This document shows, in pieces, positions 3,160-16,339 of a stretch of 39,023 nucleotides of DNA; the first letter of the stretch is position 1, and each line of letters opens with the position of its first letter. Both the position numbers and the translations under genes were made by a program. The stretch comes from Candidatus Micrarchaeota archaeon. GTDB taxonomy: Archaea; Micrarchaeota; Micrarchaeia; Anstonellales; Bilamarchaeaceae. The notes under the pieces are model-generated. The model was given only the letters and a program-made list of their open reading frames with translations, ran no database searches and was not told where the DNA came from. The DNA is taken from assembly GCA_023248035.1 (NCBI GenBank), contig JAHFFJ010000005.1, forward strand, positions 1-39,023, read 5' to 3'.

Positions 3160-4100
3160 AGCTTTAGATAGCTAATGGCATTGGCAAGTGCAACATGCAT
3201 ATGAGCAGCTGAATTGAAGCGATCATTAGGATTTGGTGCCATTGCTATCATAGTTATTTCTTCCACAGGTTTTGGCATTGACCTAAATTTAGCTGGTGAT
3301 GGTACCGGGGTAGTTTTATGAAGTTTGAGCAGATTGCCTATATCATTTTCCATTCTGGGAAGGGTATGAGCAAGCATTTGAAATAGAACTACACCAACCG
3401 AATAGATATCAGAACGAAGATCATGACAAATTCCTCCCAACTGCTCTGGCGCAGCATAACAAGCGGTACCATACCCACCAGAATTTTTTGGTGCAGCCAC
3501 CTTTTGAGAAATTCCAAAATCAATTATTTTTAGTAGCTGACCACTACGAAGCATCATTATGTTGTCTGGTTTGATGTCCCTATGCATTACACCACACGCG
3601 TGGACTGCGCTAAGCCCTGCGCATATTTCTGCTGCCACAAGAAGAGAGAGCTTAATTGAAAAGTGGTGATCTAATAGAATGGAAGTAAGTGACTTGCCAT
3701 CCAGATATTCAGTGACTAAGAAAGGCGATTCATTAAATTTACCCGAAAAAAGAGAGGTTACTACGGCTCGATGCTTTATTTCTTCTAGTAGAGCTATTTC
3801 TCTTAAAAAATGGCTCACAAAATAAGCACCTGCAGGTTGTTTAACTACAACAGTCCGCCCATCTTTTTTTCCAAGATAAACTGTTCCATGGCCACCTCGT
3901 TCTATATAATGAGTAAGTATTATACCAAAACGTGATAAGTCAGGAGCATCTTGGGGCAGGGTTCGGTGGTGGAGTTCTTGAATCCTGACTTCTTTATCAA
4001 AAACTTGGCGACCAACTACAGCCAAAAGAACAGGTGGAGTGGGATAACACCTAACTCCATATCTAAAGGCAGCTGAATCATAGACCGTTCTGACTGCCAT
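3156..4100 (-). CDS. Hanks-type Ser/Thr protein kinase (PknB-like catalytic domain, no transmembrane segment)
   Basis: RGGHGTVY, VVVK, alphaC REIA, HRDIKPDN, DFG, GTACYAAPEQ, DIYSVG, PNDRF. Confidence 0.93.
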   Translation of the reverse strand: MAVRTVYDSAAFRYGVRCYPTPPVLLAVVGRQVFDKEVRIQELHHRTLPQDAPDLSRFGIILTHYIERGGHGTVYLGKKDGRTVVVKQPAGAYFVSHFLREIALLEEIKHRAVVTSLFSGKFNESPFLVTEYLDGKSLTSILLDHHFSIKLSLLVAAEICAGLSAVHACGVMHRDIKPDNIMMLRSGQLLKIIDFGISQKVAAPKNSGGYGTACYAAPEQLGGICHDLRSDIYSVGVVLFQMLAHTLPRMENDIGNLLKLHKTTPVPSPAKFRSMPKPVEEITMIAMAPNPNDRFNSAAHMHVALANAISYLKL

Positions 4101-4138
4101 TTATTTGTTGTTATAAAAACAGTTTATAAATGTTTTAT

Positions 4139-4819
4139 TTATGGGAGAAGAGCTACCTCTTTTCTAACATAGACATTTTCTTCACCTTCCAAAAGACGGG
4201 GAGAGCTAGAAATGTCAAAAGAACAATTATGGAATCTAAAGAACTTTTCAAAATCTGGAGGAAACCCTCTTCCAGCAACGTTGAAATTTTGGAGAGTAAC
4301 CATTGTAACAGTATAATGTTGTGCAATTTCAAAAAGATATTGTAAAAGCCTTACTCTCCATCCGCCATAGATTCTTGCTTTATCATCATCTAATTCAGGA
4401 GGACTACCTATCTTGAAACAGCCCTGAATATAGTAGAGATAGAGATTAGTTTTGTGGGAAATCGTTTGATTTTTAGTAGATTTAACTGGTTTTGATAAAA
4501 GAACACAGGATGAAGTCCCCACAGATCCAGGGAATGAATCGGCAGGCCCGCCATCTCGTAAAGATTCAGAACTACGTGTAAATAGCTCTAAATCTTCTAA
4601 TTTAGGGTAGTATAAAAGCCTAAATGGGTTTTCTCTTCCTGAAAATGCTTCTTTAGCTAGAACGATTAAACCAGACCCTCTTTGACCTATTGGATTTAGA
4701 ACAAAACTTTGGGAGAACATTGGGGGCTTATAAAGAACAGGCTCACCTGAAGCCAGTTTTCCCACCATGGTTCTTATTGCTTGGATATTAGGCAATTTTG
4801 GAGGAGACGTAGTCAACAT
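4139..4819 (-). CDS. Hypothetical protein, tandem paralog of 4861-5538
   Basis: Shares GSGLIVLA, YPxLEDxExFxRSSESL, FPGxVG, IQGCFxIGSPP, ARIYGGW, FEIA, GFPxDFEK and RxEVAL with its neighbour. Confidence 0.85.
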   Translation of the reverse strand: MLTTSPPKLPNIQAIRTMVGKLASGEPVLYKPPMFSQSFVLNPIGQRGSGLIVLAKEAFSGRENPFRLLYYPKLEDLELFTRSSESLRDGGPADSFPGSVGTSSCVLLSKPVKSTKNQTISHKTNLYLYYIQGCFKIGSPPELDDDKARIYGGWRVRLLQYLFEIAQHYTVTMVTLQNFNVAGRGFPPDFEKFFRFHNCSFDISSSPRLLEGEENVYVRKEVALLP

Positions 4820-4860
4820 ATAATTGTATTTAAGACCACAATATTTAAAAATAGTAAATT

Positions 4861-5538
4861 TTAATCCTCAATAAGTGCTACTTCAGTTCTAGTAAATATA
4901 TTTTTATCTGGTATTTGATGGATATCGCCAAATATGGAAAAAGAATAGCCCATTTCACTGCTAATTTTCTCGAAATCTGCTGGAAACCCCCTAATACCAA
5001 TATTAGAATTATAAAAAACGACCAAATGTATATCGCTTTCTTTTGCAATTTCAAAAATACATTCGATAAGTCTTCTTTTCCATCCACCATAAATTCGTGC
5101 CCTATTAGGCTCTACCGCGGGAGGACTACCAATTCTGAAACAACCTTGGATAAAATTAATATTTAAATGAGGATTTAGGTAAACATCAGATCTCCCCTTA
5201 AGAGATGGAATCGAAGATCCACATATATCGAAGGGAGTGTAGGATAAAACACCAACCGCACCAGGAAATAAACTCGATGGACTCTGAGGCGTTAAAGATT
5301 CTGAACTTCTTGAAAAAATTTCAATATCTTCTAATTCAGGGTAGCAGATTAGCCGTGGACTTGGAGTGTTAGCTAAATTAAACGAGTAGCCTTGTGCTAA
5401 AACAATTAACCCACTACCACTTGCACTTCGTGCCTTCATTTTGAAAGTTGAACTGCCAGCTTCGTAAAGAATTTCTTTTCCAGACCATAGATCACGAGTT
5501 TTTTCTTTGAAGGCGCCAAATGTTTTTTGAATTTGCAT
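4861..5538 (-). CDS. Hypothetical protein, tandem paralog of 4139-4819
   Basis: Same colinear conserved blocks; near-identical length (225 vs 226 aa). Confidence 0.85.
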   Translation of the reverse strand: MQIQKTFGAFKEKTRDLWSGKEILYEAGSSTFKMKARSASGSGLIVLAQGYSFNLANTPSPRLICYPELEDIEIFSRSSESLTPQSPSSLFPGAVGVLSYTPFDICGSSIPSLKGRSDVYLNPHLNINFIQGCFRIGSPPAVEPNRARIYGGWKRRLIECIFEIAKESDIHLVVFYNSNIGIRGFPADFEKISSEMGYSFSIFGDIHQIPDKNIFTRTEVALIED

Positions 5539-5645
5539 ATAATTATAGTTAGTACCACGATATTAAAAAATGATTACTAATCGTAGATTAAGAAAAAGAT
5601 GGGCCCACGCGGGTTTTCGTATCTTTTTAGCACGCCCTTTTTTGG

Positions 5646-5666
5646 GCGCTTTTTACTAAAAAGCAC
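5646..5666 (-). repeat. REP-like hairpin copy at the start of tRNA intron 3
   Basis: Minus strand GTGCTTTTT-AGT-AAAAAGCGC followed by CCAAAAAAG. Confidence 0.7.
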
Positions 5667-5692
5667 AATCGAACCGCGAATCTCTACCATTC

Positions 5693-5723
5693 CGAGCTTT
5701 TGGAAAAAGCTCGACCAAAACTG
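5693..5723 (+). repeat. REP-like hairpin copy at the 3' end of tRNA intron 2 (inverted orientation)
   Basis: CGAGCTTTT-GGA-AAAAGCTCG followed by the tail ACCAAAACTG. Confidence 0.8.
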
Positions 5724-5868
5724 ATTTGCTAATTTTTGTTTTGTTTCATTCGCTCGCCTTTGAGGCTCGCATAAAACGTTACAAAAATGGTTTACAGCGG
5801 TCAGCGAATTTTCCAGCAGGAAAATTAAACTGACCAAAACCAAAAACCCGAAATGGGTTTTTAAACAA

Positions 5869-5905
5869 CCAGTTTTTGGTCAAACTTTTTTTCCAAAAAA
5901 GTTTG
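5869..5905 (-). repeat. REP-like hairpin copy at the start of tRNA intron 2
   Basis: Minus strand CAAACTTTTTT-GGA-AAAAAAGTTTG followed by the tail ACCAAAAACTGG. Confidence 0.8.
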
Positions 5906-6024
5906 TCAAGGTAGCGTCTTAACCACTGTCGTTTCAAATTTATAATCCGAGATAGTTCTCAGGTTAAAAAGTTGAATCAAAAACCAGTCAGCATCAAAAC
6001 CGAGTTTACGGTTTTGCAAACAGT

Positions 6025-6057
6025 CAGTTTTTGCCGCGCTTTTTCCTAAAAAGCGCG
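6025..6057 (-). repeat. REP-like hairpin copy at the start of tRNA intron 1
   Basis: Minus strand CGCGCTTTTT-AGG-AAAAAGCGCG followed by the tail GCAAAAACTG. Confidence 0.8.
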
Positions 6058-6098
6058 ATTCGACTATGGGCCCAATAATTGGATAGTGTTCACAATGA

Positions 6099-6106
6099 AT
6101 TTTAAA
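6099..6106 (-). promoter_or_regulatory. TATA box of the tRNA-Val gene
   Basis: TTTAAAAT on the minus strand, 26-33 nt upstream of the mature tRNA 5' end. Confidence 0.55.
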
Positions 6107-6325
6107 CTATACAGAAAAAGCATGGGTTTTATCCCAATTAGGATTTAGACCGGAAGGGCAAGCCTGTTTTGCAATATTTCTTACAGTATAACAAGGATCA
6201 TGTTCAGACATATAATGCAAAGCAAGACGAGCAAGATGGGTATTGATAGTTTTGATCTTTTGAATTGCTTTTTTTCTTTTAAGGACGCGTTTACTGGAAA
6301 GTAAATGTAATAGTTCTAGATCCAT
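6107..6325 (-). CDS. Small HEAT/ARM-repeat-like protein
   Basis: LLSSKRVLKRKKAIQKI...ALHYMSEHDPCYTVRNIAKQA fits the HEAT pattern LxDxxxxVRxxA; SD-like GGTG upstream. Confidence 0.6.
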   Translation of the reverse strand: MDLELLHLLSSKRVLKRKKAIQKIKTINTHLARLALHYMSEHDPCYTVRNIAKQACPSGLNPNWDKTHAFSV

Positions 6326-6462
6326 ATTGTCACCGACATATTTATACTATATACATAACTGTTTATAAAGATGTATTTTTATGTAGGTAGAATATTCAAT
6401 TAGACGTAAGAAATAGGATATAAACTCTAGTTGGCATGATAATACATATATTAGGTGTTTTT

Positions 6463-8208
6463 ATGACGTTTAAACGTTCCCCCATAATTTGCATACTAGG
6501 TCATGTAGACCATGGTAAAACAACCCTTCTTGATAGTGTAAGAGGAACTACAGTCGCAAAAAAGGAAGCAGGCGGCATAACACAAATGATAGGTGCAAGT
6601 TACGTTTCAAAAGAAGATGTTGATAGTATTGCAGGCGCACTTGCAGATAGGATGAAACTGGCTATGACCATACCCGGACTTTTATTCATAGATACACCCG
6701 GACATGAAGCATTCACCAATTTACGGGATCGTGGAGGGAGCCTTGCAGATCTCGCAGTATTAGTAGTTGATGTCAATCAGGGATTTCAGCCACAAACAAT
6801 AGAGAGTATAAAAATATTGAGACAGTACAAAACTCCATTCCTTATTGCAGCAAATAAGATAGATGCATTGAACGGATGGAAAAGCAACAAAACCACTTCT
6901 TTTATGGAATCTTTTGCCAAACAACCAGAGCACATAAAACAGAAACTTGATGAAAAACTTTACGAGGTTATGGGCAAGATTTCGGAATATGGATTTGACA
7001 GCGAACGCTTCGATAGGATAGGCGATTTCTCAAAACAAATAGCCATAGTACCTATAAGTGCCAAAACCAAAGAGGGCTTAAGTGAACTTCTTGTGCTCAT
7101 GGGCGGATTAAGCCAGAAATTTCTTGGTGATAGATTAGAGATAGAAGAAAATGGCAGAGGTAAGGGGAGTATAATTGAAGTCAAAGAGGAGAAAGGTTTA
7201 GGCACCACAGTGGATGTGATAATTTACGATGGGGTAATGAGAAAAAATGATGAGATAGCGTATATGAGTGCAGGCGGGATAACGAGAACCAGAGTGCGTG
7301 GCCTGCTTGAACCGAATCTTGGCGGGAAAGAAAAGTTTCTATTTATTGATGAAGTAGCTGCCGCTGCAGGAGTCAAAATTTATGCCCCAGATTTAGAAGG
7401 TGCAATACCGGGTTCGCCAATTGAAGTCATAAGAAATTTTGATGAGGAAAAGAAAGAGATAGAAGCCCAGTTGAAAAGTGTAATATTCCAGAACACCAAT
7501 GAAGATGGGGTGGTACTGCGTGCAGACAGCCTCGGTTCAGTTGAGGCACTAATAAGGCTGCTTAAGGAAGCGGGAATTGTTGTCAAAGATGCCGGAGTTG
7601 GAAATATAATAAGAAAAGATGTGATTTCTGCTTCGGTAGTATCTCAAAATGACCCTTTCCTTGGGGTTGTTCTTGGTTTCAACGTTAAGATACTTGATGA
7701 GGCTTTAGAGGAGAGCAAAAATAGTTCAATACCGATAATTCACAGCAACATAATTTATCGGCTTATAGATGAATACCAGGCTTGGGTGAAAACTGAAAAG
7801 GAGAAGATAAAGAAAAATGCACTCGATAATATTGTCTGGCCAGGTAAAATCAAGGTACTCTCAGGTTATGTGTTTCGTGCTTCTAAACCGGCCATATTCG
7901 GAGTTGACGTAATTGGAGGACGGGTAAAGAAGAATTATCGCCTAATGAACCATAATGGAGAGATAGTTGGCGAAATAAGGGAGATACAAAAAGAAAAGGA
8001 AAAGGTTGAGGAAGCAGGTTTGGGAGATCAGCTTGCAATATCATGCGATGGTATAGTGATTGGAAAAAATACCAATGAGGGCGATGTGCTTTACACTTAC
8101 ATGACAGTGGATGAAATTAAAAAATGGGAAACACAAGCTGCCATGCTAAATGATTCTGAAAAACAAGTTTTTGAAGAAATCAGAAGAATATTAAAGAAAT
8201 ATTTTTAG
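6463..8208 (+). CDS. infB: Translation initiation factor aIF5B (IF-2)
   Basis: RSPIICILGHVDHGKTT, EAGGITQ, DTPGHEAF, NKID, DSLGSVEAL, VFRASKPAI; start moved to ATG 6463 after SD AGGTG. Confidence 0.97.
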   Translation: MTFKRSPIICILGHVDHGKTTLLDSVRGTTVAKKEAGGITQMIGASYVSKEDVDSIAGALADRMKLAMTIPGLLFIDTPGHEAFTNLRDRGGSLADLAVLVVDVNQGFQPQTIESIKILRQYKTPFLIAANKIDALNGWKSNKTTSFMESFAKQPEHIKQKLDEKLYEVMGKISEYGFDSERFDRIGDFSKQIAIVPISAKTKEGLSELLVLMGGLSQKFLGDRLEIEENGRGKGSIIEVKEEKGLGTTVDVIIYDGVMRKNDEIAYMSAGGITRTRVRGLLEPNLGGKEKFLFIDEVAAAAGVKIYAPDLEGAIPGSPIEVIRNFDEEKKEIEAQLKSVIFQNTNEDGVVLRADSLGSVEALIRLLKEAGIVVKDAGVGNIIRKDVISASVVSQNDPFLGVVLGFNVKILDEALEESKNSSIPIIHSNIIYRLIDEYQAWVKTEKEKIKKNALDNIVWPGKIKVLSGYVFRASKPAIFGVDVIGGRVKKNYRLMNHNGEIVGEIREIQKEKEKVEEAGLGDQLAISCDGIVIGKNTNEGDVLYTYMTVDEIKKWETQAAMLNDSEKQVFEEIRRILKKYF

Positions 8209-8421
8209 GCATTTTACAACAATCAATTGACTAACCAATAACCTAACAAATCATACTTGAGCGCAGTGTGGTATTTTTCGGTGGTGGGGTTGTGTATTTT
8301 TTCGGTGGGTTTTGTATTTTTTTTATTTTTTTAGTTGTTCGCGTTAGGAATAGGTCTAGATTTTGTTAGGTAACGGAAATGGATATAATCACAAGCAAAC
8401 AATATGTGCATTGGTGTCAAA

Positions 8422-9444
8422 ATGATCATTGGTTTAACTGGTGAAAACTGCGCAGGAAAAAGCACAGTTGCAGAATACCTCATGAAAAAAGGGTTCTATT
8501 ACTATTCGCTTTCTGATGTTATAAGAGAAGAACTCAAGGCAGATGGAAAAGCAATTAGCCGCGAGAACCTTATTGCAAAGGGTAATGAATTAAGAGGGAA
8601 ACATGGACCAGGAGCACTTGGGGCAAAGATTGGCCAAAAACTCCAGAGTGATAAAAATTACGTCATCGATTCCATAAGAAATCCTGCCGAAGTGGATGAA
8701 CTTAGAAAAAGCGGAAACAACGGGCATGCAGTTTTCCACCTGTTATACATAACTGCACCAAGCGAGGTGCGTTTTGCAAGAATAAGGATTAGGAAGCGTG
8801 AGGAGGATCCGCAAACTTACCAAGCATTTGCCCATATTGAGAAACTAGAGATGGAAAACGTTGATAAGACAAAACAGAATATCAAGGGGACAATAGCCCT
8901 TGCAGAAAAGAAAGTAGTAAATGGTGGGGGATTAAACGAGCTTTATGATAGTGTCGATCGTACGCTTTCTGAACTTTCCGACAAATTTAAATTGGTCAGA
9001 CCAAGCTGGGATGATTATTTCATGCAGATAGCAAAGGTAGTAGCCTCACGAAGCAATTGTATGAAGCGAAAGGTTGCAGCCATAATTGTCAAGGATAAAC
9101 GGATCATTTCAAGCGGTTATAATGGTACGCCACGCGGAACAAAGAACTGCGCTGAAGGTGGGTGCCCAAGATGCAATAATTTCTCGGAAACTGGAAAGAA
9201 CCTTGAAGAATGCCTTTGCAGTCATGGCGAGGAAAACGCCATAGTTCAGGCAAGCTACCACGGTATAGAGATAAAGGACTCAATGATATATACTACATTT
9301 TCACCCTGTCTTCTTTGCACTAAAATGATCATAAATTCTGGATTGAAGGAAGTTGTTTATAACGCAGAATATCCGATGGGTGAAACACCGATGAAATTAC
9401 TTAAGGAAGCAGGAGTAAAAGTAAGGCAACACCAGGTGGATTAA
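8422..9444 (+). CDS. P-loop kinase-like domain fused to dCMP deaminase
   Basis: N-terminal IIGLTGENCAGKST...DSIRNPAEV; C-terminal RPSWDDYFM, SGYNGTP, HGEENA, SPCLLC (zinc deaminase); start at ATG 8422 after GGTG. Confidence 0.92.
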   Translation: MIIGLTGENCAGKSTVAEYLMKKGFYYYSLSDVIREELKADGKAISRENLIAKGNELRGKHGPGALGAKIGQKLQSDKNYVIDSIRNPAEVDELRKSGNNGHAVFHLLYITAPSEVRFARIRIRKREEDPQTYQAFAHIEKLEMENVDKTKQNIKGTIALAEKKVVNGGGLNELYDSVDRTLSELSDKFKLVRPSWDDYFMQIAKVVASRSNCMKRKVAAIIVKDKRIISSGYNGTPRGTKNCAEGGCPRCNNFSETGKNLEECLCSHGEENAIVQASYHGIEIKDSMIYTTFSPCLLCTKMIINSGLKEVVYNAEYPMGETPMKLLKEAGVKVRQHQVD

Positions 9445-15978: not shown

Positions 15979-16047
15979 TCGTTTGATGGGCAGAAGAGAA
16001 TAAAACCCGAAGGGGCGCGATTTTATACCTTGGCTGCGATTATTTGA

Positions 16048-16173
16048 GTGATGATGACCAAGGTGATCACTGAGTCACGCCCTAAGCTTGTGCCCTTCTA
16101 GTTTGTCAAAATTAGTTGGGCCAGGGGAAACCCGGCCACGGTTAATGACGATGACGATTGACGTGCGGTCTGA
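16048..16173 (+). ncRNA. Long C/D-box guide sRNA; predicted 16S targets C1402 and the 3'-terminal GAUCACCU region
   Basis: Box C ATGATGA 16051-57; 12-nt guide CCAAGGTGATCA; D' CTGA 16070-73; 77-nt structured insert; C' ATGACGA 16151-57; 12-nt guide TTGACGTGCGGT; D CTGA 16170-73; TATA-like TTTTATAC at 16021-28. Confidence 0.82.
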
Positions 16174-16246
16174 CCAACTTTTTTAGGAAAAAAGTTGGAC
16201 AAAAAACTAACTGTAATTTTAGGAAAAAGGTTTGACCAAAAACTAG
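16174..16246 (+). repeat. REP-like hairpin copy plus a degenerate second copy abutting the sRNA D box
   Basis: CCAACTTTTTT-AGG-AAAAAAGTTGG (16174-98) with tail ACAAAAAACT; partial copy TTTTAGGAAAAAGGTTTGACCAAAAACTAG at 16217-46. Confidence 0.8.
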
Positions 16247-16339
16247 GTATAAAAGGTCATGCAAAAGTTCAGTTAAAACTCCGAAGCAAAATGCACCTTA
16301 TGAATACTCTTCAGGTGCATAAATGAGCGTACGATCTAA

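Follow-up and report, generated by a model that had tools for sequence, protein, structure and literature searches.

The window analysed here is a 39,023-nt stretch of DNA from the genome assembly GCA_023248035.1 of a Candidatus Micrarchaeota archaeon (contig JAHFFJ010000005.1, positions 1 to 39,023; contig C67 of the host genome, G000). On its minus strand, at positions 5600-6073, lies a gene for tRNA-Val(GAC) that is divided into four exons by three long introns. We consider it highly probable that this gene is functional, that it is expressed as one precursor from which three introns of the bulge-helix-bulge (BHB) type are cut by an epsilon2-type splicing endonuclease (EndA), that the exons are joined by the ligase RtcB, and that the introns derive from a repeated family. 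Direct support is provided by the structure of the gene, its junctions, the BHB geometry, the enzymes encoded in the genome, the relationships among the introns, and their presence or absence in related genomes. Coordinates given without a contig are window positions.

When the minus-strand blocks 6073-6059 (15 nt), 5925-5904 (22 nt), 5689-5668 (22 nt) and 5613-5600 (14 nt) are joined by a script from their coordinates, they form a sequence of 73 nt that ARAGORN identifies as tRNA-Val(gac). It has a 7-bp acceptor stem and 5-bp anticodon and T stems, and the other elements of the cloverleaf (D arm, 7-nt anticodon loop and a T-loop of the TTCRANY type) are present. The GC content of the spliced join is 57.5%, as against approximately 37% in the surrounding DNA. 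More decisively, the join is identical at 73/73 positions to the uninterrupted tRNA-Val(gac) of four genomes from the same genus (G005, G009, G018 and G020), so that excision of the three inserts yields exactly the sequence of the intron-less orthologues. These uninterrupted genes score 67.7 bits on RF00005, where the cut-off is 29, and through this identity the join itself lies above threshold.

The same four exons were recovered, at a score ratio of 1.71-1.72, by a reference-guided spliced aligner that was not given the coordinates of the first-pass annotation and that used as references 111 tRNAs from three intron-poor relatives; in regions without a recognisable tRNA gene this ratio does not exceed 0.9. 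Because of the 73/73 identity to intron-less orthologues, the junctions are fixed to within 1 nt. The slack is 1 nt for intron 1 (tRNA positions 15/16 or 16/17) and for intron 2 (36/37 or 37/38), and there is none for intron 3. Chance is ruled out by the finding of four exact, ordered blocks that match a real orthologue. The first-pass annotation had placed a four-exon, three-intron tRNA-Val(GAC) at 5600-6073, with introns at 6058-5926, 5903-5690 and 5667-5614; it had named three 4-bp helices with cuts 2 nt downstream, put the intronic share of the gene at 85%, and suggested that standard scanners may miss it. All of this is borne out: the introns account for 401 of the 474 nt (85%), the helices are present as described below, and neither ARAGORN nor Rfam at gathering thresholds finds anything in the unspliced window.

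All parts of the gene lie on the minus strand. Exon 1 (6059-6073) provides tRNA positions 1-15, comprising the 5' strands of the acceptor and D stems, and carries the first helix strand, GTCG (H1, 6061-6064). It is followed by intron 1 (5926-6058, 133 nt) in the D-loop, in which a hairpin typical of the intron family (6035-6057) begins at intron nt 2, and in which the pairing strand CGAC (H1', 5928-5931) is followed by AG and the cut. Exon 2 (5904-5925) spans positions 16-37, with D-loop sequence, the 3' strand of the D stem, the 5' strand of the anticodon stem and the anticodon GAC; its helix strand TTGA (H2) is at 5906-5909. Intron 2 (5690-5903, 214 nt) occupies the canonical site, has 5' and 3' ends that are inverted repeats and pair as a long rod, and contains TCGG (H2', 5692-5695), followed by AA and the cut. 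Positions 38-59 are encoded by exon 3 (5668-5689), which includes the 3' strand of the anticodon stem, the variable loop, the 5' strand of the T stem, the T-loop and the strand TTCG (H3, 5670-5673). Intron 3 (5614-5667, 54 nt) has a unique junction in the T-loop at 59/60 and contains CGAA (H3') at 5616-5619. Finally, exon 4 (5600-5613) supplies positions 60-73, that is the 3' strands of the T and acceptor stems and the discriminator A. The CCA end is not encoded.

In each of the three introns, exon and intron bases form a perfect helix of 4 bp, and the cuts on the two strands lie 2 nt downstream of it, inside 3-nt bulges. The central helices are GTCG/CGAC for intron 1, TTGA/TCGG (with two G-U pairs) for intron 2 and TTCG/CGAA for intron 3. 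This arrangement recurs throughout the host genome. A total of 86 introns of at least 20 nt were mapped in 39 tRNA genes and scored at all combinations of offsets of 0-5 nt on the two sides. A perfect 4-bp helix at offset (2,2) is found in 42/86 introns, which is the maximum among the 36 cells of the 6x6 matrix, whereas permuting the pairings of exons and introns 500 times produced 12.3 +/- 2.9 such helices, and never more than 22. Many of the introns that fail the test do so because the junctions are imprecise where the reference tRNA is divergent.

The 474-nt precursor folds with a minimum free energy (MFE) of -182 kcal/mol, compared with -118 +/- 6.2 kcal/mol for shuffled sequences (z = -10.3). 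A fold in which the three 4-bp helices are imposed together with the acceptor, anticodon and T stems, and in which six 3-nt bulges are kept unpaired, lies only 6.9 kcal/mol above the MFE, and by this model a splicing-competent fold is accessible to the precursor. In the constrained fold, intron 3 is flanked by the T stem on one side of TTCG/CGAA and by an intron stem starting at intron nt 2 on the other, a near-canonical hBHBh' arrangement. Intron 2 is flanked by the anticodon stem and by a rod of approximately 30 bp formed from its own inverted-repeat ends. For intron 1, a local hairpin from intron nt 2 serves as the intron-side helix h', while the exon-side helix h is absent. Intron 1 would thus be a relaxed HBh' substrate, and introns 2 and 3 would be close to canonical. 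The first-pass annotation had described the flanking helices as imperfect throughout, which holds for intron 1, lacking an exon-side helix, and not for the other two.

The host is a member of the Micrarchaeota (DPANN), and is an archaeon of the ARMAN type, as had been proposed from the sequence together with a broad-specificity endonuclease. Its assembly comprises 1.17 Mb in 83 contigs and is approximately 90% complete. EndA is encoded on contig C73 as a protein of 391 aa that is 73-85% identical to proteins named Candidatus Micrarchaeota or Ca. Bilamarchaeum, and residues 4-391 align with residues 5-387 of the epsilon2 enzyme of ARMAN-2 (PDB 4fz2, E = 1e-129). Pfam recognises the domain tRNA_int_endo twice, along with tRNA_int_endo_N. 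Alignment to 4fz2 indicates that the catalytic triad Y236/H251/K282 is kept, as are R275, W384 and the ARMAN-specific loop including K161 (GTYKAAHR vs GTYKVSEH); the residue numbering follows PMC3488258, where K161 was shown to confer cleavage of relaxed BHB motifs. Judged by these residues, the host EndA appears to be of the epsilon2 type and of broad specificity. RtcB is also encoded in the genome, on contig C18. A second, small EndA-like open reading frame (ORF), of 113 aa and with one tRNA_int_endo domain (44.9 bits), lies at a contig edge (C5:1-342, plus strand); it may be a gene that has been truncated, or may encode an additional subunit.

Signals that might delimit the transcript can be read from the sequence on either side of the gene. 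A TATA-box-like TTTAAAAT lies at 6099-6106 on the minus strand, 26-33 nt upstream of the mature 5' end, and is a putative promoter element of Val(GAC), judged from archaeal promoter spacing. Downstream, a run of five T (5593-5597, minus strand) starts 3 nt past the discriminator base and is a candidate transcription terminator. Most likely, one 474-nt precursor is transcribed from the TATA-like element to the T-run just past exon 4. At each intron, four exon bases would pair with four bases near the intron 3' end, and the epsilon2 EndA would cut both strands 2 nt downstream, in the 3-nt bulges. The intron-side helix at the 5' bulge would be formed by a conserved hairpin or stem that begins at intron nt 1-2. 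The exon-side helix would be the native anticodon stem for intron 2 and the T stem for intron 3, and intron 1 would have none. RtcB would then ligate the exons, and CCA would be added. The family itself would have been copied between tRNA genes, between positions within tRNAs, and into rRNA genes, and its members would be tolerated because the broad-specificity EndA removes them. Beyond single-transcript expression, cleavage and ligation, we infer that the introns are selfish or neutral. An 88-aa ORF that overlaps the locus (5577-5843) has no Pfam match and was treated as spurious.

Several observations weigh against this account. Eight runs of at least five U occur inside the introns of the Val(GAC) precursor (5614-6058, minus strand), and oligo-T tracts are intrinsic terminators for archaeal RNA polymerase, so that full-length transcription of the precursor is not self-evident. 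The unconstrained MFE structure contains only the helix of intron 1 (4/4 pairs); the helices of introns 2 and 3 are each represented by 0/4 pairs. Since intron 1 has no exon-side helix, it would be cleaved only if the host EndA has the broad specificity assumed for it; a homodimer that cleaves relaxed BHB motifs has been demonstrated solely for the ARMAN-2 enzyme (PMC3239211, PMC3488258). A search for RNA runs that cover positions 4000-9000 gave none, and three metatranscriptomes from the same study or sample yielded 0 contigs on positions 5450-6250, results that are uninformative either way. Lastly, the assembly is approximately 90% complete, so an intact Val(GAC) gene is possible on the missing sequence. 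Runs of at least five T on the sense strand are abundant in other introns of the host genome as well.

The internal U-runs would have a different role if the gene were expressed in segments, with the runs acting as terminators, the exons being transcribed from internal promoters, and the pieces being joined in trans through complementary intron ends. The long inverted repeats at the ends of intron 2 would be able to pair in trans, and a TATA-like ATTATAAA, which recurs in related introns, is found approximately 15-22 nt upstream of exon 2. However, a transcript started at the spacing given by ATTATAAA would begin downstream of the CGAC strand that the BHB helix requires, and family introns of 28-54 nt are too small for internal promoters. 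In the split tRNAs of Nanoarchaeum and Caldivirga the pieces are at separate loci, whereas here the four exons are colinear on one strand within 474 nt, and the gene in its entirety lies between one TATA-like box upstream and a T-run at its end. Segmented expression is, in our view, very unlikely.

The locus is no isolated oddity, as it had at first been taken to be, but one member of a genome-wide intron family that extends to the rRNA genes. Approximately 41 tRNA genes are recoverable from the host genome, and approximately 40 of these are interrupted by 1-4 introns of 20-221 nt; the only uninterrupted gene is that for Leu(GAG) on C64. With the score ratio set at 1.05 or more, the spliced aligner found 38 loci, and ARAGORN assigned definite anticodons to 34 of the spliced products and '???' to 4. 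Further genes were added for Arg(TCG) on C20, Gly(TCC) on C45 and, from ARAGORN, Arg(GCG) on C54. Examples of interrupted loci are C36:60392-60630, C43:10399-10753 and C9:2491-2823. The Val genes are all split (3/3), with two introns in Val(CAC) on C59, three in Val(TAC) on C9 and three in Val(GAC). Conventional scanning gives a very different picture: ARAGORN with introns allowed reports 14 tRNAs genome-wide, mostly mis-modelled and 12 of them with 'introns' of 53-221 nt, while Rfam reports 3, or 2 under stricter filters. With 2-3 (Rfam) or 14 (ARAGORN) of more than 40 tRNA genes visible to scanners, such genomes look tRNA-poor.

That nearly the whole tRNA gene set is interrupted, including all Val genes, argues that the interrupted genes are not pseudogenes. 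A Val(GAC) pseudogene, wrecked by repeat insertions, would leave the GUY codons to be read by another tRNA or by an unassembled intact copy, and it is true that the inserts belong to a repeat family and that the genome is only about 90% complete. Yet the exons, identical at 73/73 positions to functional-looking orthologues, have not decayed, and a perfect 4-bp BHB helix is present at every insert site. The same verdict would also have to be extended to approximately 40/41 tRNA genes and to the 16S gene, leaving the cell without tRNAs. A search for another tRNA-Val(GAC) gene, which the first-pass annotation had suggested, found none in the approximately 90%-complete assembly, which indicates that this gene is needed. 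We therefore regard the pseudogene explanation as extremely unlikely.

Two other tRNA genes of the host have unusual intron arrangements. The gene for tRNA-Leu(TAA) (C82:25769-26221, plus strand) apparently has four introns, after positions 22, 41, 54 and 70 and of 84, 94, 42 and 132 nt, with perfect 4-bp BHB helices in three of them; the known maximum for an archaeal tRNA gene is given as three introns (PMC3239211). The gene for tRNA-Pro(GGG) (C80:30823-31037, minus strand) has two adjacent T-loop introns, at 53/54 (75 nt) and 58/59 (67 nt).

The same gene can be followed in relatives. An aIF5B-like gene (6436-8208, identified by Pfam) adjoins the Val gene in the genomes G012, G009 and G013 and on the metagenome contig L201, and judging from this shared neighbourhood the Val(GAC) locus is orthologous in these and the host. 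A gene closely related to the aIF5B-like neighbour (68-77% identity) is present at five metagenome loci; of these, only L201 has the Val gene, where it has a 57-nt D-loop intron with the family hairpin. The identical mature tRNA-Val(GAC) is encoded without intron in four genomes, with one D-loop intron in G013 (28 nt) and G053 (46 nt), and with three introns in the host, while the gene of G012 has two introns and 3 exon mismatches. The D-loop introns of the relatives' Val gene differ in length and content, but CGAC, CGGC or TGAC followed by two bases forms the end of all those examined. In G013, the 28-nt intron consists of one base, the hairpin, the 4-base strand and two bases, and is a minimal canonical BHB intron.

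The same comparison bears on the proposals that the inserts are self-splicing introns of group I or II, or that the whole arrangement is an assembly artefact or a product of chance. Group I introns are known in rRNA genes of Micrarchaeota (PMC6125680). Against self-splicing, no match to a group I or II intron or to any other Rfam family was obtained at gathering or permissive thresholds (E up to 5), and the 54-nt intron is far below the size of a ribozyme. Introns with the family hairpin are found at the same Val D-loop site in assemblies of other species (G001, G002, G013, G014 and G022) and on an unrelated metagenome contig, which speaks against an artefact, and the exact, ordered exon blocks exclude both chance and mis-joining. 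The probability that any of these proposals is correct is negligible.

The favoured account, of BHB introns drawn from a repeated family, is strengthened by the similarity among the introns themselves. In a first catalogue, one similarity network joins 56/79 introns. Depending on how much coverage is demanded, 37-55 of the 86 introns (43-64%) are at least 80% identical to an intron in another tRNA type, against 0.4-2.7 in a dinucleotide-shuffle control, and for 15-23/86 the identity is at least 90%. For example, the introns at position 15 of Gln(TTG) and position 16 of Lys(CTT) are 98.5% identical over 133 nt, and those at position 56 of Gln(CTG) and position 40 of Glu(TTC) are 90.6% identical over 212 nt. 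All three introns of Val(GAC) have relatives in other tRNA genes. Intron 1 resembles the D-loop intron of Val(CAC) on C59 (78% over 113 nt). Intron 2 is 77-86% identical over 176-219 nt to introns at Arg(TCG) 58, Glu(TTC) 40, Gln(CTG) 56 and Pro(TGG) 37, the figure for Arg(TCG) being 85.6% over 209 nt. Intron 3 matches the T-loop intron of Val(TAC) on C9 (96% over 54 nt) and a D-loop intron of Ser(CGA) (93% over 44 nt).

A hairpin core, composed of C, 4-8 T, a short loop, 4-8 A and G, is present in 55/86 introns and begins within the first 12 nt in 49. The 3' end of many long introns is the reverse complement of the hairpin module, resulting in a full element with inverted-repeat ends. Where the junctions are clean, the 5' hairpin is found in 32/42 introns, and in 30/32 its first paired base lies between -2 and +3 of the cut. 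The outer stems of these hairpins occur as 25 distinct sequences, and 3-6 bp are complementary in 30/32. This variation is covariation in a helix whose position is exactly that required of the intron-side helix of a BHB substrate. The interiors of the introns are common to the copies, and the last 6-8 nt vary with the exon context. Such a pattern fits insertion followed by selection for spliceable ends, or the exchange of interiors between older site-specific introns. Rfam searches for C/D-box small RNAs (sRNAs) or other known RNAs inside the introns gave only noise, far below gathering scores. On these comparisons, the Val(GAC) introns appear to be non-coding members of a genus-specific repeated family that is also present in rRNA genes.

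The 16S gene (C76:21593-23322, minus strand) is 1730 nt long, compared with 1478 positions in the Rfam model, and has two loci of the family inside it. When it is aligned with the 98%-identical, intron-less 16S gene of G016, three introns are delimited, at C76:22618-22570 (49 nt), 22472-22389 (84 nt) and 22103-22049 (55 nt), all on the minus strand. All three (3/3) have a perfect helix at offset (2,2), namely GTAA/TTAC, TTAG/CTAA and GTGT/ACAT, and the family hairpin opens 2/3 of them. Each of the 16S introns is present in some members of the genus and absent from others. The 3' part of the 23S gene (C81:1-1991, plus strand) extends over 1991 nt for 1024 model positions, and is thus approximately 970 nt longer than the model; it contains a copy of the family at C81:1671-1851.

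Within the host genome, 161/206 strand-counts of the family hairpin fall inside tRNA or rRNA spans, which make up 1.3% of the sequence. Approximately 26 hairpin sites lie outside these spans, several of them right beside tRNA or 16S genes. Under a stricter definition, the motif was counted 38 times in the host genome (1 in the reversed control), and the counts for 24 other members of the genus range from 0 to 20. For 16 genomes from other families of the order it was at control level (means of 1.25 vs 1.38). Within the genus, the abundance of the motif is negatively correlated with the number of scanner-detectable tRNAs (Spearman rho = -0.63, n = 25), a value that is descriptive only, the genomes being related.

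Solo hairpins that abut tRNA or 16S genes include those at C43:10374-10394, C61:1781-1801 and C80:6276-6294. The solo hairpins may be leaders or trailers of precursors, unknown RNAs, or dead copies. One hairpin (C81:5452-5472), which lies in a stop-free frame of 673 codons, was considered as a family intron in a protein-coding gene and rejected; it is intergenic, 35 nt upstream of the ATG of a gene for a protein resembling PEP-utilising enzymes. Elsewhere in the window, at 16040-16255 on the plus strand and with no tRNA nearby, C/D-box-like motifs directly precede a solo family hairpin and part of a second module. A sub-threshold Rfam match to a C/D snoRNA family (16.8 bits, E = 0.23) covers 16047-16083, and one possibility is that the region is an sRNA gene whose 3' end carries a family element.

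How the introns might spread can be addressed in part from the mobile elements of the genome. Neither a reverse transcriptase nor TnpB was found in the approximately 90%-complete assembly. Two IS200-type insertion sequence (IS) elements, with the Y1 transposase (TnpA) only, are present at C15:17206-17562 and C45:41682-42038 and are 89% identical over 665 bp. At the ends of both copies the intron-type hairpin is missing, and these ends are not significantly similar to any intron; six comparisons of filled and empty sites showed no target-site duplication. An origin of the family as palindrome-associated transposable elements (PATEs) or miniature inverted-repeat transposable elements (MITEs) of the IS200/IS605 group was rejected on both grounds. 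The introns do resemble MITEs and PATEs in having many dispersed copies, palindromic or inverted-repeat ends and no coding capacity. They differ from them in that the intron hairpins are concentrated in tRNA and rRNA genes and that their ends are unrelated to the resident IS elements.

We tentatively suggest, as a possibility that is rather more likely to be wrong than right, that the introns constitute an active, non-autonomous 'BHB-intron transposon'. This hairpin-ended, inverted-repeat element would copy itself at the DNA level into tRNA, 16S and 23S genes, and would survive only where its 3' end forms the 4-bp helix that allows EndA to erase it from the RNA. The mechanism of transposition is described as unknown for Thermoproteales (PMC4090602), and the arrival of introns as still open for Asgard archaea (bioRxiv 10.64898/2026.10.13.758758).

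Among the other genes near the Val locus, an ORF at 8404-9444 (plus strand) has, according to Pfam, an AAA/kinase-like domain at its N-terminus and a cytidine/dCMP deaminase domain at its C-terminus. The proteins encoded at 4139-4819 and 4861-5538 (minus strand) have no Pfam match.

A system close to that of the host is found in ARMAN-2 ('Candidatus Micrarchaeum acidiphilum'), a member of the same phylum with an orthologous EndA and with introns at non-canonical sites including 59/60. In ARMAN-2, 56% of tRNA genes are disrupted, and the 59/60 site is documented (PMC3239211). As in the host, the tRNA-Pro(GGG) gene of ARMAN-2 has two adjacent T-loop introns (PMC3239211). By contrast with the 56% of ARMAN-2, approximately 40/41 recoverable tRNA genes are interrupted in the host. 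In addition, the host introns reach 221 nt and belong to one hairpin-bearing family that is present in 16S and 23S genes too, features that are not described for ARMAN-2 in the available portions of PMC3239211 and PMC3488258.

The tRNA genes of Thermoproteales are similar in that one gene may have as many as three introns (Sugahara 2008 and Fujishima 2010, as cited in PMC4090602; bioRxiv 10.64898/2026.10.13.758758). These archaea differ from the host in belonging to another phylum and in having an (alpha-beta)2 endonuclease, and the host introns are much longer than theirs and carry a covarying terminal hairpin module and inverted-repeat ends. In Asgard archaea, as in the host (86 introns in 39 genes), the number of intervening sequences per gene is approximately 2.2; introns in the D arm escape annotation, and the introns are at BHB-compatible sites. 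The proportion of introns with relatives is given as 28.3% (at least 80% identity) and 12.5% (at least 90%) for Thermoproteales, and copying between tRNA types as 1.5% and 0.2% at the same thresholds for Asgard archaea (bioRxiv 10.64898/2026.10.13.758758), percentages that come from the preprint's own clustering and are only roughly comparable with the 37-55/86 of the host. Unlike in Asgard archaea, where the proportion is 1.5% and no arrival route was found, the copying signal is dominant in the host.

In the rRNA genes, the introns of the host 16S depart from the classical pattern. Classical archaeal rRNA introns of the BHB type are often long and encode homing endonucleases, whereas those of the host 16S gene are 49-84 nt, lack an ORF, and belong in 2/3 cases to the hairpin family of the tRNA introns. 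What the host shares with the archaeal rRNA BHB introns of PMC6125680 is the presence, in its 16S gene, of three introns of the BHB type.

Multi-intron tRNAs that are cut by a broad-specificity endonuclease are thus already known from ARMAN-2 and Thermoproteales, and Val(GAC) is a bona fide member of this group. What sets the host apart is the length of the introns, the near-total interruption of the tRNA set, and a recently copied, inverted-repeat hairpin family that is common to tRNA and rRNA genes and variable within the genus. A search of the literature that did not extend to supplementary tables (e.g. the ARMAN tRNA lists of PMC3239211, which may bear on intron lengths there) found no paper on long hairpin-bearing intron families in tRNA and rRNA genes of Micrarchaeota.

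Genome-quality criteria that count tRNAs will misjudge genomes of this kind. The host genome illustrates the extent to which introns can accumulate when the splicing endonuclease is of broad specificity, and the recent copies, together with differences in intron presence between species that share an identical mature tRNA, are direct material on the spread of BHB introns. If the family does transpose as suggested, the host and its relatives would offer the first tractable natural system in which the arrival of archaeal tRNA and rRNA introns can be followed, given that different tRNA genes contain copies 98.5% identical to each other and that sites are filled in some species of the genus and empty in others. 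The main value of the intron family is that it makes the spread of introns testable.

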